From: Escherichia phage vB_EcoP_PAS59
Direction: 5' to 3' (one strand)
Sequence record: OQ921332.1
Length of the DNA: 64,000 nt
Shown: one piece after another, positions 9,473 to 30,542 of the stretch
Position numbering within the stretch: the first letter of the stretch is position 1
Layout of the letters: each line of letters begins with the position of its first letter
Made by a program: the position numbers and the translations under genes
Notes under the pieces: generated by a model
Told to the model about the DNA's origin: nothing
What the model saw: only the letters and a program-made list of their open reading frames with translations
The model's database searches: none

Positions 9473-11263
9473 ATGTCAAAGATCATTTTGGGAGACACAG
9501 GCTGTAAAGAGTGCATCTCTCATGGTCGTGATAAGACCCATAATCACATGATTCTCTTCCGAAATGAAGAGTCCGGTGAGGAGTGGGGTTCATGTAACAG
9601 ATGTGGTGCGTATGAAATCTTCGAGAAAGGAACGACGCCCACTCCTAATGAAAAGAAAGAGCTGTCCCCTGAAGAACTTCGAGAAGTCTTAGACGATTGC
9701 TTAGAGCTTCCTCAGGGAGAGTTGACTCGTCGCTTAATCCCTAAAGCTGTGTCTGAACGCTATGGATGCCGTATTGGTTTAAGTCAAACAGACGGTCAAA
9801 CTCCTGACAGCTACTTCTTCCCTCGTGAACGTGATGGGAATATTGTTGGATATGAAGTAAAACTTCTAGACAGCAAGAAATTCTATTATGTAGGTAATGT
9901 GAAAGAAGCCGACTTATTTGGTATGGCTCAAGCACAACGTGGTGACGTATACAACAAGAAACTCTTCATCTTTGAAGATCCTCTCTCTTGTATGTCTGGG
10001 TTCCACGTACTTACCGCGTTTACAAACGCAACTAACATCAAACCTGCTTGCGTCTCTCTTCCGTTCGGTGCAGGTTCAATCTCTTCTGTCTTATCAAGAA
10101 ACCGTGATTTTATTAATGGTTTCGAGGAGATTGTACTCTGCATGGACAATGATGATGCAGGTGAGATTGCTTTAACTAAGGGTCGTTCTCTGTACCCGCA
10201 TGTTAAGTTTTCAAGGATTCCAAAAGGTACGTTCACTTATAACGGACAAGAAAAGGAAATCAAAGATGCAAACGACATGTTACTGGCAGGGAGAGGTCAA
10301 GAGCTTTTCAATAATCTTAAGTATTCAGCTAAGCGGGAATCTCCTGCTGGAGCTGTTACAGTTTTTGATTGCCTCGAAGATGCTCTGAAGAAAGCGGAAT
10401 GGGGTATTCCTTATCCGTGGAAAACTCTTAACGACATGACCTTTGGTATTCGTTGGGGAGAGATGGTTGCAATCGGCGGTGGTGTTGGTTCAGGTAAAAC
10501 CTTAATCGCACACGAACTGGTAGCATGGCTTTGCCTTGAGCATGGTTTTAATGGTGGTGGCTTCTTCTTGGAAGAGAAGGTAGGCATGTCTGTTAAGAAC
10601 ATTGCTGGTAAGTCTGCATCTGTTCCATTTCACCGACCAGATGTTGAGTATGAAGAAAGCCAGCTACGAGATGAAGCACTTCGATACGCTGATAAGTTTT
10701 TCTTATACGACAACTTTGGACAGAATGAGTGGGAAGACATTAAGCAGTGTATTCGCTTTTGGGTAGTTGAGAATCAATGTAAGTTTATCATCCTTGATAA
10801 CATCACTGCATTGGTATCTCACTTAACTCCATCCGAAGTGAATACAGAAATCAGTAAGATTGCTTCAGAGCTTGCTGGTATGTGTAAGGAATTAGACTTC
10901 ACTGCTTTTGTGTTATCTCACTTGAATGCTCCGGCGGGCGGTGCCCCTCACGAAGAAGGTGGTCAGGTTAAAGAAGTACAGTTTACTGGCTCACGTTCAT
11001 TAATGCGCTGGTGTCAATGTATTATCGGTTTCGAACGTAATAAACAAGCGGATGGGTTAGGTAAAAACTTGTCAATCATACGTCTGCTCAAAGAGCGTAA
11101 CTATGGACAGACGGGGGTTTGCTATACCAAATATATTAACGAAACAGGTCGTCTTGTAGAACGAGAAGATCATGAAGTTGATGAAGATAATCCGTTTACA
11201 GTCACCAACGGAGAAGATGCAGCTTCCTTACTCTCACAAGAAGGGGAGGCGCGTCCGTGGTAA
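9473..11263 (+). CDS. DNA primase/helicase (T7 gp4-like)
   Basis: N-terminal Cys4 zinc ribbon (CKEC...CNRCG), DnaB-type Walker A 'GGGVGSGKT'; AGGAGG before ATG. Confidence 0.85.
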
Positions 11264-11805
11264 AGAAACTGTATGCGTTTGATATTGAAGGTGATAACCT
11301 CTATGACGGTATTCAGAATGTCTGGTGTATATGGATATTTGATGTACTGTCTGGAGAACGGTGGGGGTATCGCCCTCACCAAATTGAAGAAGCACTACAC
11401 AAACTGAAAGAAGCTGATGTAGTAATAGGTCACAATATTATTGATTTTGACCTTCCTGCTTTGTTTAAATTCTATTCTCATGTGATACCTTTTCGTTTTA
11501 ATGTCTTTGATACTCTGTGCCTGAGTCGATACCTCAAGCCTGACCGTATTGGTGACAGTCCAGAATACCCCAAAGGCGACCCTAGACATGGCCCTCGCGG
11601 TCATGGCCTCAAGCAATGGGGTGAATTTCTGGGAGAGCTGAAGGGTGATTATGGTGAACAGGAAGAAGCATGGGACGCATTCACTGAAGACATGTTCACA
11701 TATTGTGAGCAAGACGTTAACTTGACAGTTAAGGTTTACATGTGTCTTTGCCAAATGGCAGGATTTGATTATAAGAATCCCCCATCTCTCAACTGGAAAA
11801 TGTAG
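11257..11805 (+). CDS. DNA polymerase 3'-5' exonuclease domain as a separate gene
   Basis: Exo I 'FDIEGDN', Exo II '[12 protein letters not shown]', Exo III 'YCEQDV'; 182 aa. Confidence 0.75.
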
Positions 11806-11807
11806 AA

Positions 11808-13280
11808 ATGATTAAGATTCCATTATCTGAATTGAACCTTCAAGAAGGAGAAGCCCTCAGTGTAGGGCTTGACCTGATTCGTAATTTGATCAGAGATAAC
11901 GTAGTCCCTGATGGCATCTATCCTGTTATTGCAGGTGGTGCTATCCGTGATACGTTCTTTCAAAATAGAACTCCGAATGATGTTGATATCTTCCTAGTTC
12001 AAGGAGGATTACGTTGGAACGCTCGTCAGGAAAATAGCCCTGCTAACGTAGGTAATGCTGCACTTTTCCTTGACAACTTCTTATCTTGGACAGAAAGTAA
12101 AGGGCTTCAGGTTACATCTCGACTAATTCAGCCTGTTAACGGGACAACCTATGCTGAAGCGCTTTTCACTTTCCAAGAGATTCTGGAAATCGAGATTGAT
12201 CAAGTTAAAATCCAGATGATGATTAATCTACCTTTGGATATGGATACTTTAAGCCGTCGCTTCCCTATGATCTGTCAAGGGTTTATGACTCTTGGTAATC
12301 TGTATGTGTCAAACGAAGGTTTGTTTGCAATGTCATACACTCGTGACATTCCTGTGGTGTCCAGTCGTGAAATGAAGTATGTTCACAAGAAGTGGCCTGA
12401 AGCAACTGTTGCAGTTTATAGCAGTTCTACCGAATATATGCACCTTGCAATGGGAGCTTTCGGTGAGCCAGAAGTTCACCTGATTAGTGATTTAGTTGGA
12501 CCTATGGCTGGTGTAAATTTATATCAGAATCAGCGTCGTCATTATACCCTGAAGATGATGGAAACTACATTAAACATTCCTCAGGAAAGGGGTCGTAGTT
12601 ATCTGGACGAGGAAGTTAACCTACAGACAGAATGGTCTAGTGGATTAACCACTATAGGTGCTGAAGCAATTACACGACCTTGGACTCCGGGAACTAACAG
12701 ACGAGATCTTCAAGCTTTTAATGAAGAAACTTCTCGAACTGTTCGAGGAGGTGTTGTAGGGTATAACGTACAACCTCATGAAAGACCTCGTGATACTTTC
12801 ACTGGTAGTTTTGGTAGTGCACACTCTTCTGGAATGGATACTCGTACATGGCATGTCCAAGGAGGAACTGCTCGTCCTATTCCCTCTCCGTCAATGGATG
12901 ATTTGCAGCGTTCTCGTCGTTCATGGGAAACAGTAAGCTCTGTTGTTCAGGGTCTACGTGCTAGTGATATTGAACGTGTAGAAGTTGGTGATTTGCCAAC
13001 CTCTACAGAAGATCGAGTATCAGCTATAGCGGCTCGTGAAGCTGCTCATATTGGTTTTGCATCATTAGCTAATGACGCTAACGAAGCTCCTCGACCTGTT
13101 GGTCGTCGTAATGGTCTAGCTCACTCTGACACTGCACTTGGTGCAGAACTACGAGCAGCAGCTCGTGAGCTATCTGGTGAGCTTCACAACAACCTGGCAG
13201 GTGTTACACTATCTCGTGAAACAGCTCGTAATATGATTAATAATTTGGCATCATCTGTACAAGGAAACAGAAACTCATGA
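11808..13280 (+). CDS. nucleotidyltransferase-like protein (Pol-beta superfamily head motif) with low-complexity C-terminal half
   Basis: 'IAGGAIRDTFFQNRTPNDVDIF' matches the GGxVRD...DxD motif of CCA-adding/poly(A) polymerase heads. Confidence 0.4.
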   Translation: MIKIPLSELNLQEGEALSVGLDLIRNLIRDNVVPDGIYPVIAGGAIRDTFFQNRTPNDVDIFLVQGGLRWNARQENSPANVGNAALFLDNFLSWTESKGLQVTSRLIQPVNGTTYAEALFTFQEILEIEIDQVKIQMMINLPLDMDTLSRRFPMICQGFMTLGNLYVSNEGLFAMSYTRDIPVVSSREMKYVHKKWPEATVAVYSSSTEYMHLAMGAFGEPEVHLISDLVGPMAGVNLYQNQRRHYTLKMMETTLNIPQERGRSYLDEEVNLQTEWSSGLTTIGAEAITRPWTPGTNRRDLQAFNEETSRTVRGGVVGYNVQPHERPRDTFTGSFGSAHSSGMDTRTWHVQGGTARPIPSPSMDDLQRSRRSWETVSSVVQGLRASDIERVEVGDLPTSTEDRVSAIAAREAAHIGFASLANDANEAPRPVGRRNGLAHSDTALGAELRAAARELSGELHNNLAGVTLSRETARNMINNLASSVQGNRNS

Positions 13281-13810
13281 GTCTTTTAGGTTCTCAAGAA
13301 TTACACAGCGTTATTGATAATGGCTTTTTAGATGCGGAGCATAAATATGTTAACGCTGCTAGTGTGGATATCCGTATTGGTGATACTATCCTTGTTGAAG
13401 AGCAGGCTGATGGTATTGTTGACATTGATGCTAAAGAAAACCTCAAGTGGAAAGAAGTAAAAATCCCTGAAGATGGTATCGTTATCACTCCGGGACAGTT
13501 CTTCTTAGCTCACTCAATGGAAGAGTTTAACCTTCCAGACAATATTTCAAGTCTGTTTGTACTCCGCTCCTCAATGGCTCGTTGTGGTTTAAACCATCTC
13601 CATGCTGGTTGGGCTGATGCAGGGTTTAATAACAGTAAGCTGACCTTTGAGTTCCATAACGTTACTCACAATCACAGCTTACGAGTTCGTGCTGGGATGC
13701 GTGTCGGTCAAATGGTTATGTTTGAACACTCTCACGCTGGTGATGATTCCTATGCAGTGAAGGGTCGTTATAACAACTCCGATGGGGTTGTTGCTTCTAA
13801 AGGTGTATAA
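13277..13810 (+). CDS. dcd: dCTP deaminase (dUTPase superfamily)
   Basis: 'ASVDIRIGD', 'ITPGQFFLAHSMEEFNLP', 'LRSSMARCGL', 'WADAGFNNSKLTFEFHN' track the Dcd signature. Confidence 0.7.
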   Translation: MSLLGSQELHSVIDNGFLDAEHKYVNAASVDIRIGDTILVEEQADGIVDIDAKENLKWKEVKIPEDGIVITPGQFFLAHSMEEFNLPDNISSLFVLRSSMARCGLNHLHAGWADAGFNNSKLTFEFHNVTHNHSLRVRAGMRVGQMVMFEHSHAGDDSYAVKGRYNNSDGVVASKGV

Positions 13811-13813
13811 CTG

Positions 13814-14026
13814 ATGGAGTTTGGAACAATGAAAAGACGTTGGGTTGTTCGTGTTCACTGGAGCAGTGGTACAGAATCAATGGGTATCAGAAACACTCGT
13901 CAAGAAGCTCGCGCTCATAAGAAGTTCCTATTAAGCTGCGAAAGTACTATTGACAAGATCACTATCCACAAAGCTCAGGACTTTAAATCAGGTCGTTTCT
14001 ATATCAGCGGAAAGGTACATTACTAA
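13814..14026 (+). CDS. small protein, tandem paralog A
   Basis: 'WVVRVHWSSG...TRQEARAHKKF...KVHY' parallels the next ORF. Confidence 0.45.
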   Translation: MEFGTMKRRWVVRVHWSSGTESMGIRNTRQEARAHKKFLLSCESTIDKITIHKAQDFKSGRFYISGKVHY

Positions 14027-14232
14027 TGGCTAAATTATGGGCAGTTCGTGTTAAATGGGCTAACAAAGATCTCGGTGGTGACTGTCTTAAATTATTCGAC
14101 ACACGACAAGAAGCTCGTCTTGCTAAGAAAGCTACAAAAGCTTTAGGACTCGCTGAAAAAGTGGATATTCATCGCTGGTTTCAAAATGATAATAACAGTG
14201 CTGGGTCCTTGACTAGCAAGGTCCACTACTAG
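14026..14232 (+). CDS. small protein, tandem paralog B
   Basis: 'WAVRVKWANK...TRQEARLAKKA...KVHY'. Confidence 0.45.
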   Translation: MAKLWAVRVKWANKDLGGDCLKLFDTRQEARLAKKATKALGLAEKVDIHRWFQNDNNSAGSLTSKVHY

Positions 14233-14256
14233 TTGGTAGTAGATATGATAACTCTC

Positions 14257-14265
14257 AAATGTATA
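14257..14265 (+). promoter_or_regulatory. promoter-like element AAATGTATA (8/9 to TAATGTATA)
   Basis: Intergenic, about 40 bp before ATG 14303. Confidence 0.3.
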
Positions 14266-14302
14266 TACAGTATAAGAATATTGTATGAAACAGGAGAGAG
14301 TT

Positions 14303-14632
14303 ATGTTAGATTTGAGTAAAGTGGCCCCGCCATCTGAAGAGATTAGCAAAGCTAAAGTTATGCAGCAGTTCTATCATCGTGACATGCTTGGTCGTTATAT
14401 CAAGAATCGTGATGTTGTTGCATGGTCTATTGGAAACCAAGGCTATCTTCTCAAAGTGTTGCAAGTTACTGGCTCAACAGCCAAGCGAGTCAAAGTCTAT
14501 GACCCTGAGATGGGGCGTTCTAAATCGGTAGACCCACAGAATTGCATTGTTATTACACAGCAGGTCATGGATAACATTGCTCGTAATGTAGCTAATTCAA
14601 CTAACTTAGAAGGGGATGCACCTAATGCATAA
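14303..14632 (+). CDS. hypothetical protein
   Basis: CAGGAGAGAG before ATG at 14303. Confidence 0.4.
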   Translation: MLDLSKVAPPSEEISKAKVMQQFYHRDMLGRYIKNRDVVAWSIGNQGYLLKVLQVTGSTAKRVKVYDPEMGRSKSVDPQNCIVITQQVMDNIARNVANSTNLEGDAPNA

Positions 14633-15191
14633 TAATGTCTTCGACTTACCAGAACTAACAAGAGTGGGTTCTAGTAATCCATTCTCTACTACTGATTCTT
14701 CTATCTCTCGTCTTGAGGGAATGAATAAACTGATTAGCAGTAACAGCCTAGAGCACATTCTTTGTGGTGTGCAGGCTAACCTTGAACTTCTACACATCAA
14801 AGCAAAGAACTACCACTGGAACGTCTCTGGAGCTGGTTTCCAAGGTGTTCATGGGATGTTCGATGAGTTAGAAGATTATGCTCGTGAGGCAGGCGACCGA
14901 ATAGCAGAGCGTATGCGCTTCCATTGTGTTAAGGTGGATGCCACTGCTAGTAACTATTTAGGTCACGCTTGGTTCCGAGAAGGTAACGCTGATCTCGACA
15001 TGGACGGTATGCTTTCCGACATGTGCATGACTCTTATGTGTATCATTGAGAAGATGGACGAGTTTGATTCAGACTTGTGCACCTATCCAGTTGATCAGAG
15101 TATGCTTCAAGAAATTAATGAAGGTCTTGGCAAGTTCTGTTACTTTGTCAAGAGCAACATGTCCCACTCTGGTGGTGATGTGTCTTACTAA
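14625..15191 (+). CDS. Dps-like ferritin-family protein
   Basis: 'KAKNYHWNVSGAGFQGVHGMFDELEDYAREAGDRIAER' closely matches the Dps ferroxidase-region signature. Confidence 0.65.
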   Translation: MHNNVFDLPELTRVGSSNPFSTTDSSISRLEGMNKLISSNSLEHILCGVQANLELLHIKAKNYHWNVSGAGFQGVHGMFDELEDYAREAGDRIAERMRFHCVKVDATASNYLGHAWFREGNADLDMDGMLSDMCMTLMCIIEKMDEFDSDLCTYPVDQSMLQEINEGLGKFCYFVKSNMSHSGGDVSY

Positions 15192-15254
15192 TCAAACCTC
15201 CGCCCTGTCTCGTTTGTTCAAGAGGTGGGGCGAACTTTTTATAAGGATGTGAAT

Positions 15255-15434
15255 ATGTTTTCAGCAATCGTATGGTCTGTGTGGGCAATTCTTGTTGGCG
15301 GTATCGTTTATCTGGCTCAGAAGCAGATGCTTAAAGAGAATCCGAATGATGCCAAACCTATTAAACATGGTAGCATTGCTCTGGTAGTTTTCTCTGTTGT
15401 CATTCCTTTCCTTCTCCACCTGTTGACTGCATAA
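15255..15434 (+). CDS. small two-TM membrane protein, tandem paralog A
   Basis: Two hydrophobic segments flanking 'KENPNDAKPIKHGS'. Confidence 0.4.
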   Translation: MFSAIVWSVWAILVGGIVYLAQKQMLKENPNDAKPIKHGSIALVVFSVVIPFLLHLLTA

Positions 15435-15443
15435 GGGTTTGAT

Positions 15444-15629
15444 ATGATTTCACTGATTGTGTGGGCCGTGTGGTCGTTAATAGTTGGTACTGTTATATAT
15501 AAAGCTCGAAATTTAGCAATTAAAGAAAACCCAGCAGAAGAGGATGTTAAAGCTATCAAGCTAGGTAGTGTTGTTCTGGTACATTTTGCTATAACACTAC
15601 CTCTTGTTATTATTCTTTGTATGCTATAA
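15444..15629 (+). CDS. small two-TM membrane protein, tandem paralog B
   Basis: Same architecture, 'KENPAEEDVKAIKLGS'. Confidence 0.4.
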   Translation: MISLIVWAVWSLIVGTVIYKARNLAIKENPAEEDVKAIKLGSVVLVHFAITLPLVIILCML

Positions 15630-15819
15630 GGAACCCAAAGAGTGAAACTAAACCTACCTGAAGAATTACAAGCACATGCCATTATCGTTAGTGGCTGTGT
15701 GATGGGTCTTGGTCAGACAAAGAAGATTGCTCATGACTTAGCAAAAGGTCAGTATAAATCTTTTATTGTTGTTCCTGCTACCCAGCGTCATATCAATCTG
15801 TTTATTAACAAGGAATAGA

Positions 15820-16095
15820 ATGAGTAAAGTAATTAAGTTTTATAGTGATCAGTGTGCTCCATGTAAAGCAATGGCTCCTACCTTTGAGAAGGTTGTTAAG
15901 GAGTTTGATGTAGAAGTGGAAGAGATTAACATCCTTGAAGGTGATGGTCGTGAACAAGCTGTTAAGTATGGTGTACGAAGTATCCCTGCTTTCGTTGTGC
16001 CTGACCGTAACAGTGGTGCACACTACAGCCTCTCCGGTATGCAGACTGAAGCAAACCTGAAAGCATTTTTGGATACAGCTCTAGGCAATAAATAA
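15820..16095 (+). CDS. thioredoxin-like protein
   Basis: 'KFYSDQCAPCKAMAP' CxxC active site in thioredoxin context; about 90 aa. Confidence 0.6.
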   Translation: MSKVIKFYSDQCAPCKAMAPTFEKVVKEFDVEVEEINILEGDGREQAVKYGVRSIPAFVVPDRNSGAHYSLSGMQTEANLKAFLDTALGNK

Positions 16096-16110
16096 TAAGG
16101 GTATTCACGG

Positions 16111-16602
16111 ATGAATAATATTGACCCGTCAATAAAAGAAGCTCTTGATTACGACCCTTTGACTGGAGATTTCCGATGGGTTAAAACTTATGGAAAAGGA
16201 CACAAAGGGTCTATAGCTGGTTCTGTAAATACCAATGGGTATTTGAGAATCGTTTATAAAGGTGCTAGATACTACGCTCATCGACTTGCTTACTGGTGGG
16301 ACACTGGATTGCTTCCTGAAGAAGTAGATCACATAGACCGCAACAGGATAAACAACAAAAGAGAGAATCTTAGGGGGACTACTAGATCAGGAAATGGCCT
16401 AAACAAAGTAGCTCAGAGTAATAATTTATCAACCGGAGTGATTGGAGTGACTGTCCATAGAAGGAAAAGTGGCTCTATTGCTTACCGGGCGGTATTTAAA
16501 TCTAAGCACATAGGACTCTTCTCAACCATAGAAGAAGCCTCTAGGGAATATAATAAAGTCAAGGAGACTTACATAAATGACAATCAAAGCTTCATTAATT
16601 GA
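16111..16602 (+). CDS. HNH homing endonuclease with AP2-like DNA-binding domain
   Basis: 'LDYDPLTGDFRW...AHRLAYWW...DHIDRNRINNKRENLR' plus 'GVIGVTVHRRKSGSIAYRA'. Confidence 0.7.
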   Translation: MNNIDPSIKEALDYDPLTGDFRWVKTYGKGHKGSIAGSVNTNGYLRIVYKGARYYAHRLAYWWDTGLLPEEVDHIDRNRINNKRENLRGTTRSGNGLNKVAQSNNLSTGVIGVTVHRRKSGSIAYRAVFKSKHIGLFSTIEEASREYNKVKETYINDNQSFIN

Positions 16603-17224
16603 TAACTTCGGTTCAGATCTTACAGTAGTCAATGCTGCTCGTGTAACTATGGGGGTAGAAAGGGAAGAATTAAAAGAAAGTGACACTCGTCTAATAAATT
16701 TTCTAGCTCGGGAACGGCACGTAAGTCCTTTTCGTCACCCACAAGCGAGCTTCAGATGCGAAGCTCCTATAGCAATTGCACGACAGTTACAGAAGCATCA
16801 AGTTGGTTTTTCTTGGAACGAGATGAGTCGTAGATATAAAGATGGAGCAGTGGATATTTTCATACCTAAAGAAATCTTCTCCCGTCCAGATGATCTACAT
16901 TCTGGTTCTGGAATACTTCTTGAAGGGGAGGAAGAGGCAAAAGCTTTAGCTTTGTTTAACTCTGCGTACGAGGCATCTCTTGCTAGTTATGACGAATTGA
17001 TTAAGTTCGTAGCTCCTGAACAAGCTAGATTTGTTTTACCTCAAGGTATGGTAACTACTTGGTACTGGACTGGTAGCTTGTATGGCTGGTTTGAATTGTG
17101 TCGTCAACGACTATCATCCCATGCTCAATATGAAGTTCGACTATTTGCTCAGTCATTAGATGAAGAGATGGCTAAACTCTATCCAATCTCATGGGCAGCT
17201 TTGAAGAAAACTTTGGAGAGTTAA
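16577..17224 (+). CDS. thyX: ThyX-family (flavin-dependent thymidylate synthase-like) protein with variant signature
   Basis: 'HVSPFRH...ARQLQKHQVGFSWNEMSRRY' parallels ThyX 'SPFEH...RHR-x7-S..RY', but RHR is replaced by KHQ. Confidence 0.55.
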   Translation: MTIKASLIDNFGSDLTVVNAARVTMGVEREELKESDTRLINFLARERHVSPFRHPQASFRCEAPIAIARQLQKHQVGFSWNEMSRRYKDGAVDIFIPKEIFSRPDDLHSGSGILLEGEEEAKALALFNSAYEASLASYDELIKFVAPEQARFVLPQGMVTTWYWTGSLYGWFELCRQRLSSHAQYEVRLFAQSLDEEMAKLYPISWAALKKTLES

Positions 17225-17369
17225 TTTTGGAAGAAAACGATGATGATGTTTTCTGTACACGGTGCGGTATGACAGTTGATGATGCTTACGACCCTACAGT
17301 AGAGATTTGTCCTTGCTGCGGAGTTTGTGAGTATTGTTGTAGTCACAATTCAGATGAATAGGTAAAACT

Positions 17370-17555
17370 GTGGACTTATACAAAACATGTAGCTTCTGTC
17401 AAAAGCAGAAGCTTCTTATCAACTTCAAGCTGAACGAGGAAACAGGTTTGGGTCATGCTTTTTGTCATGATTGCAGACACTACCTTGAACAGAAACAATA
17501 TATAAACTGGTTGCATTATTTCAACCCCAGCATCTACGAGCACAAGGTTATCTAA
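17370..17555 (+). CDS. small Cys-rich (zinc-ribbon-like) protein
   Basis: CSFC...CHDC pattern. Confidence 0.4.
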   Translation: MDLYKTCSFCQKQKLLINFKLNEETGLGHAFCHDCRHYLEQKQYINWLHYFNPSIYEHKVI

Positions 17556-17876
17556 ATGATCAACGATAGTACATTTAGGACTGGTAACGGAAATGAAATC
17601 AGTCCTGCTGAAGTGATTAAACGACACAGAACACAGATGCTTATCCACTCCTATTTGTATTATTGGTTGGATGACCCAATCTGGTCTGACGATAAGTGGC
17701 AACAAGTGGCTGATGACTTAACCACCTTGCAAGAGATGTATCCTGAGCCTATTGGATTCTTCGATTCAGAGTTCAATGGATGGAATGGCTCCACTGGTAT
17801 GCATCTTCCTCATGACGAGCGTATAGCTTGTATGGCTACTGAAGTATACCGTTTACATAAGGACAAATCAATCTGA
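17556..17876 (+). CDS. hypothetical protein
   Basis: ORF abutting upstream stop. Confidence 0.4.
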   Translation: MINDSTFRTGNGNEISPAEVIKRHRTQMLIHSYLYYWLDDPIWSDDKWQQVADDLTTLQEMYPEPIGFFDSEFNGWNGSTGMHLPHDERIACMATEVYRLHKDKSI

Positions 17877-18054
17877 AATGTTTTAAATGTGAATCAACTC
17901 TTCTCCATTTGGACTCGAAAGTAATACGGGAGCTTGCCAAAGGCTCCCCGACTAAAGGGAAGAATAAGAAGTTTGTCGAAATTAAGGTTATAGGTATCCA
18001 TTGCTCAGAGTGTAAATCCTGTAGCTTCTTATATGAAGAACACGGAGGTAGGAA

Positions 18055-18792
18055 ATGAGTCGTAGAGAATCTCGGAAAGCATCACGGAGAGAATTACGTC
18101 GTGAAGCTCTCGTCACCAAGAAAGGAAAGCGGGAATTTGAAGAAGTAGTTCTTGCTAAGCCGGTAGTACCTCAGAACCAATTCCAGAGTGAGCTGCTTGA
18201 TGCAATTAAAACCAAACAGGTTGTATTCACAGATGCTCCTGCTGGCTGTGGTAAGACATTCGTAATCACTTCTACAGTGATCGATGCTCTGAAGAGTGGG
18301 AAGATTGAGAAGATTATCCTAAGCCGACCTGCTGTTGGTATGGGTAACAGTCTAGGATTACTTCCCGGTGGGCTTCGTGAGAAATTTGAACCATACCTGA
18401 TGCCAATTGTTGATGTTATCACTCAGCGTTATGGTAAAGGCTTCTATGAGTGTCAAATTGGTAATGGTAACATTGAGTTTGTACCTCTGGAATACCTCCG
18501 TGGCCGTTCATTCAACGATGCTATTGTGATTGTTGATGAGTTCCAGAATACCACTCCTGATGAAGCATATTCAATTATGACTCGTCTTGGTGAAACCTCT
18601 CAGATGTTCTGTATGGGGGACACCAATCAGCACGATATGCGTGGTGAGAGTGGTCTAGATTGGGCTACTGATTTCATATACCGTCACAAATTGTTTGAAT
18701 TTGCCGCTCTAGTAGATGGTGAATCGGATGATATTGTTCGTTCAGGTTTCTGTAAAGCTATTGTCAAAGCAATGGAATCTGAAAAATCATAA
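18055..18792 (+). CDS. phoH: PhoH-like ATPase
   Basis: Walker A 'DAPAGCGKTF', Walker B 'IVIVDEFQN', size typical of PhoH. Confidence 0.75.
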   Translation: MSRRESRKASRRELRREALVTKKGKREFEEVVLAKPVVPQNQFQSELLDAIKTKQVVFTDAPAGCGKTFVITSTVIDALKSGKIEKIILSRPAVGMGNSLGLLPGGLREKFEPYLMPIVDVITQRYGKGFYECQIGNGNIEFVPLEYLRGRSFNDAIVIVDEFQNTTPDEAYSIMTRLGETSQMFCMGDTNQHDMRGESGLDWATDFIYRHKLFEFAALVDGESDDIVRSGFCKAIVKAMESEKS

Positions 18793-18795
18793 ACA

Positions 18796-18804
18796 TAATG
18801 TATA
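18796..18804 (+). promoter_or_regulatory. TAATGTATA promoter-like element
   Basis: Exact 9-mer, 33 bp upstream of ATG 18837. Confidence 0.4.
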
Positions 18805-18836
18805 CTCCTTAGTGTACACTGATATATTAAGGAGTT

Positions 18837-19154
18837 ATGATGACCGATAAGGCGAAAAGAGATTATGCACAAGAACGAAGAACTGCAATCAAACGTGGGG
18901 AGACAGGTGTTGGTAGCAAGAGCGGAGATGCTCAGCGCCACCGTGCACGTCGCATCGTTGAAAAACGCGATGGAAAAGCTGCTGTCCGAGGTAAAGATGT
19001 TGGACACAAACGATCAATCAAGTCGGGAGGTTCTAATGCGTCAAGTAACTTACGTGTTGAATCAGTCTCTCGAAATCGCTCGAACGGCGGCAAAAGTGGA
19101 GATCGTGCTGGAAAATCAGCAGGCGGTCGCAAAGGAGCTTTAAGCTCAAGCTAA
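18837..19154 (+). CDS. basic Gly/Arg/Lys/Ser-rich small protein (frame uncertain; an alternative ORF 18865-19143 overlaps)
   Basis: AAGGAG before ATG at 18837; TAATGTATA element at 18796; terminator follows at 19160. Confidence 0.35.
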   Translation: MMTDKAKRDYAQERRTAIKRGETGVGSKSGDAQRHRARRIVEKRDGKAAVRGKDVGHKRSIKSGGSNASSNLRVESVSRNRSNGGKSGDRAGKSAGGRKGALSSS

Positions 19155-19159
19155 TATAA

Positions 19160-19190
19160 GGCTACCCATTTCGGGTGGCCTTTTCTTTTA
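19160..19190 (+). terminator. intrinsic terminator (8-bp stem with G-U, AUUUC loop, U-run)
   Basis: GGCUACCC-AUUUC-GGGUGGCC then UUUUCUUUU. Confidence 0.6.
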
Positions 19191-19210
19191 TGTAACCTAA
19201 GGTAATAAAT

Positions 19211-19462
19211 ATGTCTAAAGTAACTTATATCACTGTAACTGATTTCCTTCCTTCTCTGAACACAACTGAGAGTTATACTTTTCCTGTAGAAAATGTTACA
19301 AGCTCTGTTGAGATGATTCAGTTTAACAAAACAACAGCTCGTACTAATGTAACCCTTCGTGGCCCTGATGGCAAGTTCATCTCCTTCCGTGATAAGGGTG
19401 TTCCTAAGCGTATTGCTAAATCTATTGAAAATCTGAAACCTTTCCCCAACTTTGGTGCATAA
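19211..19462 (+). CDS. small protein, tandem paralog A
   Basis: 'KTTARTNVTLRGPDGKFISFRD...NLKPFP'. Confidence 0.45.
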   Translation: MSKVTYITVTDFLPSLNTTESYTFPVENVTSSVEMIQFNKTTARTNVTLRGPDGKFISFRDKGVPKRIAKSIENLKPFPNFGA

Positions 19463-19721
19463 TATGAAGATTAGCTTAATCCAAATTCGTGATCATCTCT
19501 TTAATGGTGACGCTCAGACTCATGACTACAAGGTTAATCAAGGACAACACCCTACCAATCACCTGATTGGAGGGATTTCTTTATTGCCTAATAAAACAGC
19601 ACGGACTAATGTAATGATTCGTGGTAAGGATGGTAAATTCCTCTCTTATCGTGACCCTGAAATCTGTGCTATTGTTCGTACAGCCATGAACAACCTAAAA
19701 CCATTCCCGACAGTGGAGTAA
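19452..19721 (+). CDS. small protein, tandem paralog B
   Basis: 'KTARTNVMIRGKDGKFLSYRD...NLKPFP'. Confidence 0.45.
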   Translation: MVHNMKISLIQIRDHLFNGDAQTHDYKVNQGQHPTNHLIGGISLLPNKTARTNVMIRGKDGKFLSYRDPEICAIVRTAMNNLKPFPTVE

Positions 19722-19724
19722 GTT

Positions 19725-20075
19725 ATGCCAGTACCTCAACGCCTAGAACGTCACTGCGTTCTCAAATGGGACAATATTCATGACAACCTCTCTAGTCAAG
19801 AGTTTCGTCAGTTTATTGAATTGACAGCGAAGATTAACCGAAACCGACCAGCTCGAAATTATGTGGTGGTTAGTGACAAGTATCCAGAGCTGTATGAGCA
19901 GGTGTGGGGTATGAAACTTGCACAAGTTCAGAGGAACAGTAACGAACGGAGAGAAGCTCGTAGACAGAGAGCAGAAGATATTCCAGCAGTCTTTTATGTG
20001 GATGAAGCGGAATCCTACGAACAGTTAGATATTGTTGAGGATAACCAAGCGTTCACTGATTTAATATACCGATAA
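19725..20075 (+). CDS. hypothetical protein
   Basis: ORF only. Confidence 0.4.
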   Translation: MPVPQRLERHCVLKWDNIHDNLSSQEFRQFIELTAKINRNRPARNYVVVSDKYPELYEQVWGMKLAQVQRNSNERREARRQRAEDIPAVFYVDEAESYEQLDIVEDNQAFTDLIYR

Positions 20076-20088
20076 CTATAAGGAGTGG

Positions 20089-21783
20089 GTGATGGATAAC
20101 CCTGATAAGTTACCTTTCATAACGGAGATGACAGTCGCTGATATAATCTCAAAACAGGCGAAGCATGGAGTCAACTTCAACAGAAGAAACGCTCGGTGGT
20201 TTGTTCATCTTCTCAAAGAGATTATTGTCAATATTGATAAAGAACTGATTCCTCTCCTCCCCAAAATGCGGGTGGATGGTTCAACTTATTCTAAACCTTT
20301 TAAGAAATCAGGTGCTTTACAGAAGTGGCCTCAGCTCTATTGCGATAGGGTTGGTCTTAAAAGAGAAGATATCGGTGGGGCGTTTACTTGCGTTGAGTAT
20401 GTAGATTTTGACCCATCAAAAGATGCACGTATTAAAGAAGCCTTGATGGATGAAGGTTTTATACCTCCAGAGTGGAATTATTCTAAGAAACCTTGGAATA
20501 CTTTTGAAATTCGTAAAGCTATGAAGAAGTATGGTACATACTCTGCATGGTATTCTGCTTGGATTCGAGGTAACGCTAAAGAGAAACAGACAGCAGAGAT
20601 GATAGATGCTGATATCCGAAGGTTTTTGGATAAGCACTTCCGTTATCACACTGTCAATTATATGAAAGCCTATGTCAGCGGTTTAGGTCTTAACCCTAAC
20701 AGGAAGAAGCCTGTAACCTTTGATGAAATCAAAAAAGCTTTGGCTACATCAAACAAGTGGCCTACAGCCCCTACAAACCTTGAGGAGACTCTTGAAGAGG
20801 GGCTTGGGGGTGAACTAGGGGGTGTAGGAAGTTTGCTTAAGAGACGCGTTGTAGCGGCTCACAGGCTAGGTTTGATTAGCGGGCTTATCGACAAGGAACG
20901 TAAAGATGGTAAACTGTCCGCCGAAGCTAATAGCTGCGCTACTCCGACATTTCGTTTTAAACATCGCATTGTTGTTAATATTCCTTCTCGCGGTTTGTTT
21001 GGTCACGAGTGCCGCAGTCTTTTTCAATCTGACTATTCCTCAGACGATAGTCATAACCATCCTTTCATCATTACCAACCATATCCCTGATGGGTGTTACG
21101 TACGAAAGGGTACTAACATTATCTACGAAATGGGAAAACCGGGCAAGAAAGACAAACCAATAGGTGCTTATAAATTTTATGTACCTGCTGGTCGTGAAGT
21201 CTTCTTAGGTTATGATGGCTCTGGTCTTGAGCTGAGGATGCTTGCTCATTACCTTATCAAAGAGTGTCGTGAGATGCTCGCTGAAGCAGAGCGGGAAAAC
21301 AACCCAGCTAAGAAACGGGAAGCTGAACGCGGTCTAGCTTCTGCTGTTATGTACAGAGATATTCTTTTAGAAGGGGATATTCACTCACATAACCAAAAAC
21401 TTGCTGGCCTTCCTACTCGTGATAATGCTAAAACGTTTATCTACGCATTCAACTACGGAGCTGGTGACGCTAAGTTAGGAAGCATCGTAGGTGGTGGCTC
21501 TGATGAAGGGGCTGTCATGAGGGCAAGATTCTTAGCAGAGAATCCTTGTATTGCAATTCTTATTGAACGTATGACAGAGAAAGCACAAAGTGGATACATC
21601 TACGGTGTGGATGGACGTCGTATTACAATGAGGAGGGATGCAACTGGAAAGGTTATGGTTCATAAAGCCTTAAACACCCTCTTACAGAGCGCTGGGGCGA
21701 TTGTTATGAAGTATGCAATGCTATTCCTTAATAAATGGATTGAGCGTGATGGTGTTCGTTGTGCGAAGGTTATTGACATGCAT
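20089..21783 (+). CDS. DNA polymerase (family A, T7-like), polymerase domain exon 1
   Basis: Motif A 'YDGSGLELRMLAHY', motif B 'RDNAKTFIYAFNYGAGDAKLG', 'ALNTLLQSAGA' as in T7 gp5; frame runs into intron (stop at 21811). Confidence 0.8.
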
Positions 21784-22390
21784 AAACTTCATTGTGCATG
21801 TAAAAGTTGGTGAACTCGGTGAAACCCGACCATTAAGTTGAGGGCAATACCGAGCTAAGCTATTAGGAGGTGATATGGCTAAGAAAGATCTAGTGTTAGA
21901 AACTACTGACACAGGATGTATCATCCCTATCTCACACAAACTTAATAAAGATGGTTACTTCAGAAAGGTAATAGATGGCAAATGGGTCATGTATCACCGA
22001 TACGTCATGGAAGAAAAGTTTGGAAAGATTCCTGATGGGTTTGAAGTAAACCATAAATGCAAGAACAGAGCTTGCTGTAACACAGACCACCTAGAGATTC
22101 TATGGGGGAGTGCTCATGCAATAGAATCCAATACAGGTAGAAACAGAGAAAGACAGGAAGCTGCTAAAGAATTCTGGCTTAATAATGAATGTACCGGTGT
22201 TGCTCTTGCGGAAAGATTTGGTGTGAGCTTTGGAATCGCTTGTAGATGGATTCGAAAGTGGAAAGTGTAGAGACTATCCTTTGGGAGTAGGGGGTTAACA
22301 GGGAAACCCTCGAAGCGCCAACAACAGCAAATTAGCTATGCTGTTATGATATAGTCCGATACCCGAAGTAATTTGGGAATAACATAAATG
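21784..22390 (+). mobile_element. group I intron (IA-like) carrying an HNH endonuclease ORF
   Basis: 5' exon ends in U; P1 pairing of AUGCAU (21778-83) with GUGCAU (21794-99); R-like 'AGAGACUAUC' (about 22266-75) and S-like 'AUGAUAUAGUCC' (about 22346-58); terminal G at 22390. Confidence 0.6.
21875..22270 (+). CDS. intron-encoded HNH homing endonuclease
   Basis: 'EVNHKCKNRACCNTDHLEILWGS'; AGGAGG before ATG. Confidence 0.7.
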   Translation: MAKKDLVLETTDTGCIIPISHKLNKDGYFRKVIDGKWVMYHRYVMEEKFGKIPDGFEVNHKCKNRACCNTDHLEILWGSAHAIESNTGRNRERQEAAKEFWLNNECTGVALAERFGVSFGIACRWIRKWKV

Positions 22391-22543
22391 GATGAAGGTC
22401 AGTTCACTGTACATCGTGATGATGTTAACAAACTTCGTACCCTCACTGAAGAGTGTGTTCGTAAAGCAGGAGAGTACCTCAAGATGGAATGTCCTCTGGC
22501 ATCTGATTGCAAAATTGGATTAAACTGGAATCACACCCACTAA
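22391..22543 (+). CDS. DNA polymerase exon 2 (motif C and C-terminus)
   Basis: Splicing gives '...VIDMH|DEGQF...' restoring HDE; ends 'KIGLNWNHTH' like family-A polymerase C-termini. Confidence 0.6.
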   Translation, partial: DEGQFTVHRDDVNKLRTLTEECVRKAGEYLKMECPLASDCKIGLNWNHTH

Positions 22544-26677: not shown

Positions 26678-26702
26678 AGCCACCTTCGGGTGGCTTTTTT
26701 CG
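26678..26702 (+). terminator. intrinsic terminator AGCCACC-UUCG-GGUGGCU plus UUUUUU
   Basis: Read directly; after the SSB-like gene. Confidence 0.65.
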
Positions 26703-26713
26703 TTGGAGTTAAA

Positions 26714-27055
26714 ATGGAAAAGCTTCAAAACAATATAGGTTTTTTAATCTTCACAGCTCTGGTTTTCTTTGGTGGTGTCAAGTTTGAGCAATACAGAAGT
26801 GATAGTAATGCTCTTGACCATGAGAAGAAACAGCAAGAGATTGAGGTTGAGAGAGCTAAGGCTGCTGATGAAGTGGCTCAGAAAGTTCTGACTGGTTTAT
26901 CTAACTGGAAGAAGAACACGGAAACTATTTACAAAGAGATGCATTATGAAAAGACTAAGCCAGTTTTTTACAATGTGTGTGCTAGTGATGAGTATGTAGG
27001 ACTTTTCAATGAACGACAGCAACAAGCAGCGGAGGCACTGAAATTAAAGAATTAG
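26714..27055 (+). CDS. i-spanin-like protein (N-terminal TM plus periplasmic coiled coil)
   Basis: 'IGFLIFTALVFFGGV' TM, charged helical remainder; C-terminal 'GLFNERQQQAAEAL' duplicated downstream. Confidence 0.4.
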   Translation: MEKLQNNIGFLIFTALVFFGGVKFEQYRSDSNALDHEKKQQEIEVERAKAADEVAQKVLTGLSNWKKNTETIYKEMHYEKTKPVFYNVCASDEYVGLFNERQQQAAEALKLKN

Positions 27056-27537
27056 TTAAATATCTATCTTACAATGAGGTTTCTGGTCTTCTCTGCTGGA
27101 AACAGTCTGAGGATAAGAGCGCTCAGTGGAATTCAAGATTCGCTGGAAAGGTGGCAGGTTGTAAAGCCACAGATGGCTATACAGTGATTACCTATCAATA
27201 TAAACAGTACAAAGCTCATAGAATTGCTTGGTATATCAAAACTGGAGAGATTCCTGATTTTCAAATAGACCATAAAGATTTAGACAAATCTAATAATTCT
27301 TGGAGCAATCTAAGAAGAGCAACACCTGTCCTTAATAATGCCAACAAAATAGTTCAAAAGAACTCTTTAACTGGAATAAAAGGTGTAGGGTACAGGTCGG
27401 ATATTAACAAATGGAGTGCTCGCATCGGATATCAAAACAAAGTAATTTGGCTTGGTTATCACAGCACTCAAGATGGTGCAGAAAATGCTTACAAAGAAAA
27501 AGCAAAAGAGTTGTTTGGTGATTTTTCTCGCTTCTAG
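27043..27537 (+). CDS. HNH-AP2 homing endonuclease; predicted AUU start
   Basis: Frame open from 27013 with no ATG/GTG/TTG until 27151, yet encodes conserved N-terminus 'IKELVKYLSYNEVSGLLCWK...AHRIAW'; GGAGG 7 nt upstream of ATT 27043. Confidence 0.55.
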   Translation: MKELVKYLSYNEVSGLLCWKQSEDKSAQWNSRFAGKVAGCKATDGYTVITYQYKQYKAHRIAWYIKTGEIPDFQIDHKDLDKSNNSWSNLRRATPVLNNANKIVQKNSLTGIKGVGYRSDINKWSARIGYQNKVIWLGYHSTQDGAENAYKEKAKELFGDFSRF

Positions 27538-28647: not shown

Positions 28648-29243
28648 TGAGTAAACCTTTAGTAGTAATCCTAAATGGACCTCCGGGTTGTGGTAAAGAT
28701 ACAATCGCTAATGCTTGGTTAGAGAAGACAGCTGGTAACACTGAGTTTAGACCGCATGTAAAGGCTTTTAAGGAGCCTATGTATCGGGTGGCTGCTGCTG
28801 CATTAGGTCTCCCTCTTTATGAGTTCATGGAGCTGTACAACGACCGTGAGTGGAAAGAACTTGTCCGTCCTGAATGGGGAGGTAAGTCAGTTCGAGATTT
28901 GATGATTGCAACTAGCGAGAATTATCTGAAGCCTATGTTTGGTGAGACCTGCATGGGTAAACTTGCTGTTAGCAGTATCCAACAACATATCCCATCACAG
29001 AATGATGTTATCGTCTTCTCTGATGGTGGTTTTAGAGCAGAAGTTGAAGAACTAGAGAGACACTTCCATGTTCGAGTAGTTCAGGTTCTCCGCGATGGCT
29101 GCTCCTTTGAAGGAGACTCCCGTTCTTATATTGAAGGAACAAACCTACCAACCTACCTCCTCTTTAATGACCGTTCTGTAGAAGAGGCAGTTGAGGATTT
29201 AGAGTGGATTATTGAAGGGACACGGAGAGATCTCTATGTCTGA
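28647..29243 (+). CDS. P-loop nucleotide kinase-like protein
   Basis: Walker A 'LNGPPGCGKDT' near N-terminus, about 200 aa. Confidence 0.5.
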   Translation: MSKPLVVILNGPPGCGKDTIANAWLEKTAGNTEFRPHVKAFKEPMYRVAAAALGLPLYEFMELYNDREWKELVRPEWGGKSVRDLMIATSENYLKPMFGETCMGKLAVSSIQQHIPSQNDVIVFSDGGFRAEVEELERHFHVRVVQVLRDGCSFEGDSRSYIEGTNLPTYLLFNDRSVEEAVEDLEWIIEGTRRDLYV

Positions 29244-30054
29244 TGTAATCTATCCTGAAGTGGCAATTGTGGATGCAGATGTTCTACGATATGAAGTCGG
29301 TGCTCTTACACAAGAGCATCCTTTTCTAGACACAGGTCGTGTTCCAGTTGATTATGGATTCTTGATTGAACGACTTCAACATAAAATAGATGTAATCATT
29401 GCAAGGTCTGGTTGCGAGAAAACAATCTTTTACTTCAGCGAAGGTGGTAATTTTCGGTTTGATATTGCTAAGCAGCAAGGCTATAAAGCTAATCGACCAC
29501 CGGGAGAAAGACCTCACCACTGGCAAAATGTCAGTGATTACATTAAAGAGAATTACGAATACGTAGAAGTTTTTGGGAGAGAGGCGGATGATGCCCTAGC
29601 TGAAAGACAGAGACGTGATAAGAACACTATCATTTGCACCCGTGATAAAGATTTGTTAATCACTCCCGGATGGCATTACCGTTGGGCTTGCGGGGAGAGA
29701 CAGAAAGAAGTACCTCCTCACTATGTATCAGAGGAAGTAGCATGGCAGAACTTCTTCTACCAGATGCTGATCGGGGATAGCACAGATAACATTCCCGGAT
29801 GCGGTGAGAAGGTTGAAATGATGTGGGGTGGCAATCTAGTAATGCGTCGTAAAGGCATTGGTAGTAAGGCTGCAATCAAACTTATTGAGAAGGTATTCGA
29901 TAAGTGGACTCTTTATCATATTATACGAATGGAATACTATAAAAGGTTCGAGGAAGAAGCAGAAGCTAAGATGTTAGAAAATGCTCGATTGCTCTTCGTT
30001 GGACAAGCTGAAGGTGACCTCTTTGATTGGTCATGGTTAAACAAGGAATGGTGA
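29236..30054 (+). CDS. 5'-3' exonuclease / flap endonuclease
   Basis: 'LIGDSTDNIPGCGEKV...GIGSKAAIKLI' H3TH-type motif, acidic clusters. Confidence 0.65.
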   Translation: MSDVIYPEVAIVDADVLRYEVGALTQEHPFLDTGRVPVDYGFLIERLQHKIDVIIARSGCEKTIFYFSEGGNFRFDIAKQQGYKANRPPGERPHHWQNVSDYIKENYEYVEVFGREADDALAERQRRDKNTIICTRDKDLLITPGWHYRWACGERQKEVPPHYVSEEVAWQNFFYQMLIGDSTDNIPGCGEKVEMMWGGNLVMRRKGIGSKAAIKLIEKVFDKWTLYHIIRMEYYKRFEEEAEAKMLENARLLFVGQAEGDLFDWSWLNKEW

Positions 30055-30542
30055 TCTTGGATAGAGAAGAGTTAAAAAGGCTTCTCAAGTATGATCCAAA
30101 TAGTGGTCAGTTTACTTGGAAAGTTAAGAAAGGTAGGAAGAATGTTGGAGATGCGGCTGGATGCTTTTATGGAAAACATAGATACCGCTGCATCAAGTTA
30201 AATCAAATATTGTATCAATCTCATAGACTTGCATACCTTTACATGGAAGGTTACATTCCTGATTGTGTAGACCACATAGACGGAGACCCTTCTAATAACA
30301 AGTGGTGCAATCTAAGAGAAGCAACTTTAAGTCAGAATCAGTGGAACAGAAAGATCTCTATAAACTGCACTTCCGGAATCAAGGGAGTCTCTTTCCATAA
30401 AAGAGCTAATAAGTGGAGAGCTATTATTGGAGTGTCTGGGAAATCTATCCATCTAGGGTATTATGCAACTAAAGAAGAGGCTGAAGAAGCCCTGAGACTG
30501 AAAAGAGAAGACCTACACTTAGGCTTTCATCGTCACAAATAA
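30027..30542 (+). CDS. HNH-AP2 homing endonuclease (start uncertain)
   Basis: 'LKYDPNSGQFTWK...SHRLAYLY...DHIDGDPSNNKWCNLR' plus 'GIKGVSFHKRANKWRA'. Confidence 0.65.
   Translation: MVMVKQGMVILDREELKRLLKYDPNSGQFTWKVKKGRKNVGDAAGCFYGKHRYRCIKLNQILYQSHRLAYLYMEGYIPDCVDHIDGDPSNNKWCNLREATLSQNQWNRKISINCTSGIKGVSFHKRANKWRAIIGVSGKSIHLGYYATKEEAEEALRLKREDLHLGFHRHK

Follow-up and report, generated by a model that had tools for sequence, protein, structure and literature searches.

Escherichia phage vB_EcoP_PAS59 (sequence record OQ921332.1) encodes the exonuclease domain of its T7-type family A DNA polymerase in a gene of its own. The window analyzed here is a stretch of 64,000 nucleotides (nt) from this phage. 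The exonuclease gene is at 11257-11805, and the polymerase gene begins 8.3 kb 3' of it. The polymerase gene is itself interrupted, within catalytic motif C, by an insertion that, judged from its sequence, is a group IA2 intron, homologous to the gene 5 intron of T7-like phages and located at the same site. A thioredoxin gene lies between exonuclease and polymerase and most likely belongs functionally to a nucleotide-metabolism cassette. We thus consider region 11257-22543 to be probably a replication and nucleotide-metabolism block with a separate exonuclease, an intron-split T7-type polymerase and a thioredoxin that goes with the cassette. The source is a phiEco32-like (Gordonclarkvirinae) E. 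coli podophage. Region 11257-22543 has 95.7% nucleotide identity to Escherichia phage Bas86 over 94% of its length and matches 98 phage records, nearly all from phiEco32-type Escherichia/Shigella phages (Gordonclarkvirinae: Kuravirus, Suseptimavirus).

The pieces of the polymerase, with their coordinates in the window, are:

11257..11805, + strand: stand-alone 3'-5' proofreading exonuclease (DEDDy, exonuclease-domain type of T7 gene product 5 (gp5)), 182 amino acids (aa), GTG start
20092..21783, + strand: DNA polymerase exon 1; codons 1-564 cover the thumb, palm and fingers with motifs A and B and end with the His of motif C
21784..22390, + strand: predicted 607-nt group IA2 intron, in polymerase motif C between His and Asp
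21875..22270, + strand: HNH homing endonuclease of 131 aa, encoded in the P6 loop of the intron (PF13392 (HNH_3), 9.2e-12)
22391..22543, + strand: DNA polymerase exon 2, 50 codons plus stop (Asp-Glu of motif C to the C-terminal His)

Exonuclease and Polymerase Are Complementary Parts of T7 gp5

The open reading frame (ORF) at 11257-11805 carries the three exonuclease motifs (Exo I: D9, E11; Exo II: H59, N60, D65; Exo III: Y149, D153), and these residues are invariant in an alignment of 35 homologues. The match to Pfam DNA_pol_A_exo1 is marginal (24.2 bits; the cutoff is 23.6). When solved structures were searched (phmmer, PDB), only T7 gp5 was matched (residues 4-142, E 4e-8). With a profile of the 35 homologues, residues 6-169 align to T7 gp5 2-190 (hhalign, probability 99.4%, E 6e-22). 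The AlphaFold2 (AF2) model has an RNase H-like fold, with a predicted local distance difference test (pLDDT) score of 92.9. The 27 top Foldseek matches of this model are all T7 gp5 (E about 1e-10), compared to ~1e-4 for stand-alone exonucleases. The 36 close homologues, with lengths of 105-208 aa (163-208 aa in 35 of them), are stand-alone proteins throughout. An exhaustive profile search returned both short and long proteins: among the best 150 cluster representatives, 42 have at most 240 aa, some of which may be fragments, while 81 have more than 540 aa and match at their N-terminus. The exonuclease ORF thus nests among the exonuclease domains of fused T7-type polymerases. Loci on viral contigs mostly held distant polymerases of the fused kind and were left aside.

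The polymerase starts with GTG at 20089 or, more likely, with ATG at 20092, as in annotated relatives. Its frame stops at 21813 because the 607-nt insertion at 21784-22390 splits the gene. The resulting ORFs of 574 aa (20089-21813) and 51 aa (22388-22543) cover PF00476 profile positions 143-334 and then 335-380. Excision of 21784-22390 yields a 614-aa protein, which is identical to the uninterrupted database protein P0037 in 610 of 614 residues. The family A motifs A (D..ELR), B (K...YG) and C (HDE) and the thumb-palm-fingers architecture are present. A profile of 90 polymerase homologues aligns end to end with T7 gp5 203-704 (hhalign, probability 100, E 4e-81) and only with this part of gp5. 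The AF2 model (pLDDT 93.1) opens with two long thumb helices, and no DnaQ-like exonuclease fold was found in it.

The exonuclease (gp5 2-190) and the polymerase (gp5 203-704) are thus complementary and do not overlap, and all catalytic residues are intact. As the polymerase lacks an exonuclease fold, the break is located exactly at the domain boundary, in the linker. The two proteins probably re-associate non-covalently into a gp5-like proofreading polymerase, as is the case for the alpha and epsilon subunits of Pol III.

An earlier note on this DNA, made from the letters alone, had located Exo I-III in the 182-aa ORF and the start of the polymerase domain 8.3 kb downstream, at 20089. Both assignments hold, with ATG 20092 as the likelier start codon. 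The alignment of both pieces to T7 gp5, which the note had proposed as a check, puts the break between gp5 residues 190 and 203. The note had allowed for the ORF at 11257 being closer to a stand-alone exonuclease family, or for the polymerase ORF containing a complete exonuclease domain of its own; the Foldseek ranking and the thumb-first polymerase model, respectively, speak against this. The view of a polymerase in two pieces was correct with respect to the exonuclease/polymerase split but overlooked a third break, which is the group I intron in the polymerase gene.

Compared to T7 gp5, the polymerase has extra segments at residues of about 136-222 (helical), 316-368 (beta) and 390-415 (helical). 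These (window about 20497-20757, 21037-21195 and 21259-21336) are clade-specific and are all confidently folded in the model. The first directly follows the thumb loop; in LUZ24-like phages it is shorter.

A separate 5'-3' exonuclease (FEN-like) is encoded at window 29212-30054 (+ strand). Its match to 5_3_exonuc_N (2.3e-6) is below the curated cutoffs, and it is annotated with this function in relatives. It represents a third detached piece of a Pol I-like enzyme.

A Predicted Group I Intron in Motif C of the Polymerase Gene

Upon alignment to the uninterrupted polymerase gene of Bas86, a single insertion of 607 nt is seen, between ...GTT ATT GAC ATG CAT and GAT GAA GGT.... The base before it is an exonic U, and its own last base is G (...AAAUG). 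In P1, CAUGCAU and GUGCAUG are base-paired, and the pair at the 5' splice site is U.G. By blastn, the insertion has 66-70% identity over 83-99% of its length to gene 5 insertions of T7-like phages (13a, VSG32, JeanTinguely and others), about 70% over the first 30% to K1F-type phages and about 69% over 82% to Vibrio phage Vp_R1. Gene 5 is annotated as a spliced join in 13a, K1F and JeanTinguely. The insertion site is the same (AWVH/DEIQ in 13a, IDMH/DEGQ in the window and IMMH/DEFQ in Vp_R1, with the slash marking the insertion). This position is "site 881" (Pol I numbering), which PMC3428280, citing Bonocora and Shub (2004), reports for the self-splicing PhiI/W31 introns, which encode I-TslI. 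The HNH protein encoded by the intron has 57% identity to the intron ORF of 13a (E 3e-61).

The intron helices were assigned by hand, and their pairing was then checked by script in five sequences. P1, P3, P4, P5, P7, P7.1, P7.2, P8 and P9 are paired in these, with six of seven pairs in P1 of 13a and K1F. Compensatory changes on both sides occur in P1 (2/7 pairs), P3 (5/7), P5 (1/3), P7.2 (1/5), P8 (5/5) and P9 (3/6). Between the window (AUGCAU/GUGCAU) and 13a (GUGCAU/GUGCAC), the guide sequence changes along with the local exon. A GUA linker that joins P7.1 and P7.2 is typical of group IA2 (PMC3428280), and such a linker is present in the window (GGA-GUA-GGG). A MAFFT alignment of ORF-less intron cores was rejected because the P7.2/P3'/P8 region was misaligned.

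Two aspects weigh against the assignment as a spliced group I intron. One is the Rfam score. At gathering thresholds, there was no Rfam match over the whole window. A permissive scan of 21700-22500 returned Intron_gpI (RF00028) at 22271-22378 with 30.9 bits (E 6.8e-6), which is below the gathering score of 50, and a second weak group I piece at 21816-21880 with 10.9 bits. The low score is probably due to the 396-nt ORF in P6, which splits the match. The other is that the helices were assigned by hand and that splicing in this lineage is a prediction.

The polymerase mRNA would lose the 607-nt self-splicing intron before translation. Read-through of the unspliced RNA adds KLHCACKSW and then reaches a stop codon (21784-21813); the product would be a polymerase without the carboxylates of motif C and with nine foreign residues at its end. 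The last three bases of the intron are AUG (22388-22390). They are in frame with exon 2, which gives rise to a spurious 51-aa "ORF" that is annotated in databases as a second, small DNA polymerase.

At an identity of at least 80%, the intron is matched by 13 phage records, as compared to 98 related records, and most of the related phages have a plain polymerase gene of 1842 nt. Intron-less alleles are found in Bas86 and EK010, and alleles with the intron in SU7, ECBP2 and PE006. We found no paper in the literature that describes an intron in this lineage. The mobile element as such is known, and the lineage is new among its hosts.

The polymerase genes of other Kuravirus-like phages (Bas89, KBNP1711, Bas93, Bas94, LAMP; proteins P0050-P0053) contain other insertions, of +780 nt (annotated "endonuclease"), +706 nt (annotated "endonuclease VII") and +304 nt (no annotated ORF). 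There are also Kuravirus-like relatives with truncated polymerase ORFs of about 450 aa, which end near motif B. The Kuravirus-like polymerase gene looks like a hotspot for mobile elements of several kinds.

Alternative Readings of the Separate Pieces

The separate exonuclease could be a nuclease that acts independently, for instance in the breakdown of host DNA, in recombination or in the removal of primers, having only its descent in common with a polymerase exonuclease domain. This would fit with a gene that lies 8.3 kb from the polymerase gene, past a terminator-like hairpin, and that is coupled to the helicase gene instead (see below). It is also a point against a two-protein proofreading polymerase that the association of exonuclease and polymerase is an inference. 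However, the proofreading residues are all invariant, the nearest proteins by sequence and by fold are the exonuclease domains of T7-type polymerases, and no part of gp5 is missing or duplicated at the break. A stand-alone exonuclease and a polymerase without an exonuclease domain are both present in every relative examined, and the polymerase would otherwise be devoid of proofreading. We therefore regard an independent nuclease as quite unlikely and prefer a detached proofreading subunit. As for the polymerase itself, the 607-nt insertion might stay unspliced, so that the enzyme consists of two polypeptides (573 aa including a 9-aa foreign tail, plus 51 aa translated from AUG 22388). There is a parallel in T4-like phages, where a homing endonuclease gene divides gene 43. 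The AUG at the end of the intron is in frame with exon 2, a ribosome binding site (RBS) is marked upstream of it in the SU7 annotation, database entries list the pieces as separate coding sequences, and the Rfam score is under the gathering value. On the other hand, such a break would separate His from Asp within the catalytic HDE motif. The insertion has the full set of group I helices, the U.G pair at the 5' splice site, the terminal G and a guide that co-varies with the exon. Homologous introns at the same site are annotated as spliced in T7-like phages, and those of PhiI and W31 are reported to be self-splicing (Bonocora and Shub 2004, as cited in PMC3428280). A polymerase made of two unspliced pieces is thus highly improbable, and we retain the predicted intron.

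The Phage Thioredoxin and the Genes between Exonuclease and Polymerase

The 8.3 kb between the exonuclease and the polymerase are a nucleotide-supply cassette (dCTP deaminase, thioredoxin, Dps-like protein, ThyX, PhoH) together with homing endonucleases. The genes of this interval are:

11808..13280, + strand: 490-aa ORF, "nucleotidyltransferase" in the Bas86 and SU7 annotation (label from annotation only)
13277..13810, + strand: dCTP deaminase (PF22769, 1.1e-34)
14616..15191, + strand: ferritin/Dps-like protein (PF00210, 7.3e-8; annotated as DNA-binding/Dps in relatives)
15820..16095, + strand: thioredoxin, 91 aa, CAPC active site (PF00085, 1.8e-13)
16111..16602, + strand: free-standing gene for an HNH homing endonuclease, located after that for thioredoxin and before that for ThyX (PF13392, 2.9e-10)
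16577..17224, + strand: ThyX flavin-dependent thymidylate synthase (PF02511, 4.7e-43)
17556..17876, + strand: stand-alone NAD+-binding domain Ia of a LigA-type DNA ligase, 106 aa (PF22745, 1e-33)
18055..18792, + strand: PhoH-like ATPase (PF02562, 5.2e-56)

The thioredoxin has 31% identity to E. coli TrxA residues 24-107, and the N-terminal ~20 residues (a beta-alpha unit) are absent. Equivalents of TrxA R73, I75, P76 and G92 are kept (the RSIP loop corresponds to TrxA R73-P76). Departures from TrxA are found at W31 (Gln), G33, G74 (Ser) and K90 (Leu).

The polymerase has an insertion at the tip of the thumb, between helices H and H1 (residues of about 56-105), which aligns to T7 residues of about 291-337, the C-terminal half of the thioredoxin-binding domain. 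With ~50 residues versus ~75 in T7 (262-337), the loop is about 25 residues shorter, and T7 residues of about 262-290 have no counterpart; the N-terminal half of the T7 domain includes basic loop A. The window loop REDIGGAFTCVEY matches T7 REYVAGAPYTPVEH, including equivalents of E319, T327, V329 and E330, which contact thioredoxin in T7 (PMC5984650). In the AF2 model, the insertion is a confidently folded subdomain by itself. The window and SGF2 keep the equivalents of the T7 contact residues. Phages 7-11, Privateer and GAP52, which encode the thioredoxin, do not keep those of E319 and E330. In the window, Lys and Arg are abundant in the loop.

In relatives with a split polymerase, the loop is equal in length and similar in sequence, with or without this thioredoxin gene, and this includes ZCPS1 and Aeromonas phage APT65. 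The complete genome of ZCPS1 has no thioredoxin-like ORF (best E 8.5), and no thioredoxin fold was found when the small ORFs between exonuclease and polymerase of APT65 and ZCPS1 were scanned. APT65 had appeared to be thioredoxin-less by tblastn, which was rejected upon a profile search and inspection of the annotation. Its only thioredoxin-like gene (L097:34766-34996) adjoins nrdA/nrdB and is not in the exonuclease-polymerase interval. APT65 belongs to a sister lineage with an equal split polymerase and carries genes for class Ia and class III ribonucleotide reductase (RNR). We found no link between the phage thioredoxin gene and the length of the thumb loop, its sequence or the T7 contact residues.

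Homologues of the window thioredoxin are almost confined to C3-morphotype enterobacterial phages. In 7-11, Privateer and GAP52, the gene is just downstream of that for dCTP deaminase (in two of these it comes immediately next, and in 7-11 it follows PhoH). The thioredoxin is most likely a reductant for the synthesis of deoxynucleoside triphosphates, for example for host NrdAB. There is no annotated RNR in the closest relative, so that the partner would have to be a host RNR.

The alternative is that the phage thioredoxin binds to the thumb insertion as a dedicated processivity factor and that exonuclease, polymerase and thioredoxin form a host-independent holoenzyme. This is unlikely, although not far-fetched. 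The polymerase is closest to T7 gp5, and its thumb insertion aligns to the C-terminal half of the T7 domain with equivalents of the contact residues E319, T327, V329 and E330; equivalents of R73, I75, P76 and G92 are kept in the thioredoxin itself. Two of the arguments weigh against a function in nucleotide metabolism: the window loop keeps the Glu equivalents of T7 E319 and E330, and no C3-morphotype relative is without the thioredoxin gene, even where a phage RNR is missing (the closest relative has no annotated RNR that it could serve). Against a processivity factor, the loop is about 25 residues shorter than that of T7 and lacks its N-terminal half, and a like loop exists in ZCPS1, which has no thioredoxin, and in APT65, where the thioredoxin-like gene is next to nrdAB. 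The Glu contacts are not kept in 7-11, Privateer and GAP52, which encode the thioredoxin. TrxA G74, W31 and K90 are changed (to Ser, Gln and Leu), and the N-terminal beta-alpha unit is absent. Furthermore, AF2 folds the thumb insertion confidently on its own, and the E. coli host already provides TrxA. We thus assign the thioredoxin to the cassette and consider a role in polymerase processivity doubtful. It is tempting to speculate that the truncated thioredoxin might be a dedicated clamp of the shortened thumb, so that active replication would rely on a three-protein family A holoenzyme (exonuclease, polymerase, thioredoxin) that is independent of host TrxA. This is improbable but, if true, nature would offer here a minimal form of the interaction between T7 gp5 and thioredoxin, in which proofreading is left to a detachable subunit.

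The earlier note had taken the phage thioredoxin to suggest a self-contained replisome. Given the shorter loop, the lack of a thioredoxin in ZCPS1, the cassette context and nrdAB in APT65, this does not go beyond plausibility. A thioredoxin-binding loop, which the note had advised to look for, exists as a homologous thumb insertion, but it has only ~50 residues and the N-terminal half of the T7 loop is absent. Among the intervening genes named by the note, those for dCTP deaminase, the Dps-like protein, thioredoxin, ThyX and PhoH are supported by Pfam, while the nucleotidyltransferase is not, since no Pfam family was matched by the 490-aa ORF at 11808-13280. Overall, the observation of a split polymerase is confirmed, and its interpretation with respect to thioredoxin is weakly supported.

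Gene Order and Neighboring Genes

Two more features of the region are relevant to its organization:

9473..11263, + strand: T7 gp4-like primase/helicase (Pfam DnaB_C 2.8e-10, weak Toprim match)
19158..19182, + strand: strong intrinsic-terminator-like hairpin (10-bp stem, T tract)

The end of the primase/helicase gene (TAA stop codon at 11261-11263) overlaps the start of the exonuclease gene (GTG), with an RBS (GGGGAGG) at 11243-11249. From this arrangement, the exonuclease gene is predicted to be translationally coupled to the primase/helicase gene. The order of helicase followed by exonuclease is common to all relatives examined. The hairpin separates the cassette from the small ORFs that precede the polymerase gene, and the SU7 annotation has a terminator at the equivalent place. 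The number of promoter-like matches across the region is not above chance. The C-terminus of the primase/helicase (window 11200-11263, + strand) is an acidic tail with an aromatic last residue. It recalls the tail of T7 gp4 (last residue Phe), which docks onto basic patches of gp5/thioredoxin.

In annotated relatives, the gene order is equal to that of the window. The order of helicase, exonuclease, insert and polymerase is kept from LUZ24-like phages to phiEco32-, 7-11-, Privateer-, GAP52- and APT65-like phages. The interval between exonuclease and polymerase has 1.4 kb in LUZ24-like phages and 5.6-9.6 kb in the other groups. The cassette size among relatives ranges from 1.4 kb up to about 10 kb.

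The region is mosaic. The thioredoxin shares 98.9% identity with the phiEco32/Kuravirus type, compared to only 78-80% with those of EK010 and SU7. The exonuclease is 100% identical to that of EK010, and the polymerase (scored via P0037) is 99% identical to the Suseptimavirus type. To judge from these identities, the cassette has been exchanged between genera (Kuravirus-type thioredoxin, Suseptimavirus-type polymerase).

The ORF for LigA domain Ia (17556-17876) has no adenylation domain, although it is annotated as "NAD-dependent DNA ligase" in relatives. Besides the one in the polymerase intron, HNH_3 homing endonucleases are encoded at 16111-16602, 27151-27537 and 30027-30542 (all + strand), two of the three with an AP2 domain. 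In Bas86, the genes for spanin and for a COOH-NH2 ligase are annotated as spliced (join), with embedded HNH ORFs. The window may thus hold further introns, for example around 26690-27537.

Implications

This clade is a convenient natural system to study how a family A polymerase proofreads with a detachable exonuclease and whether a thumb loop of ~50 residues suffices to recruit thioredoxin. Annotation can be improved as well: the triplet "DNA polymerase / HNH endonuclease / small DNA polymerase" becomes one spliced gene in the window, SU7, ECBP2, PE006 and others. Autographiviridae, Gordonclarkvirinae and Vibrio Grimontviridae share this mobile intron, at one and the same site in the catalytic motif, which points to homing across unrelated lineages via a conserved polymerase motif.

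Comparison with Known Systems

Both the exonuclease/polymerase split and the thioredoxin-processivity hypothesis are already known from publications. According to PMC9965538, polymerase, 3'-5' exonuclease and 5'-3' exonuclease are encoded separately throughout the Kuravirus-like phages and also in 7-11, Privateer, Vp_R1 and BUCT695. The split had been noted earlier for the LUZ24 group and phiEco32, as had an intron in the LUZ24 polymerase gene (PMC3517423). Coupling of the phage thioredoxin with the T7-like polymerase, with improved processivity, was proposed in the Privateer paper from 2021 (PMC7881722).

The window shares genes, gene order and near-identical sequences with phiEco32 and other Kuravirus-like phages. 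The exonuclease has 80% identity to that of phiEco32 and 100% to that of EK010, the polymerases are 87-99% identical, and the thioredoxin is the phiEco32 type already described. Most Kuravirus-like phages have an uninterrupted polymerase gene, whereas that of the window carries the motif C intron. The LUZ24/PaP3 group of Pseudomonas phages (Bruynoghevirus) is similar in the order of helicase, exonuclease and polymerase and has the same thumb loop, with identities of about 33% for the exonuclease and about 41-44% for the polymerase. It differs in that only four small ORFs are located in its 1.4-kb gap and that there is neither a thioredoxin gene in the genome nor a nucleotide-metabolism cassette.

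T7 gene 5 polymerase is the best match for both pieces in sequence and structure, with the same exonuclease residues and motifs A, B and C. In common with T7 are also the thumb insertion at the position of the thioredoxin-binding domain and a gp4-type primase/helicase upstream. T7, however, has one polypeptide of 704 aa, while the window has two genes that are 8.3 kb apart. Also, T7 uses E. coli thioredoxin, while that of the window is phage-encoded and truncated, and its binding to the polymerase is hypothetical.

E. coli Pol III consists of the alpha (DnaE) polymerase and the epsilon (DnaQ) DEDD proofreader, two products of separate genes that work together in a complex. The analogy is functional only, as the Pol III polymerase belongs to family C rather than A and is not homologous; the complex has been shown for Pol III and is inferred here. 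A small phage-encoded CxxC protein with a thioredoxin fold among nucleotide-metabolism genes resembles RNR reductants of the T4 NrdC type. A difference from phage RNR-reductant systems is that the closest relative of this phage has no annotated RNR of its own.

The intron resembles the group IA2 introns in gene 5 of T7-like phages (PhiI, W31/I-TslI, 13a, K1F, Kayfunavirus, Teetrevirus) in its site, its helices and its P6 ORF. Its host gene, though, resides in another phage lineage, with a split polymerase. Its P8, P9 and P7.2 differ in sequence from those of the T7-like introns, and its P1 and P3 have been adapted to the exon and core found locally.

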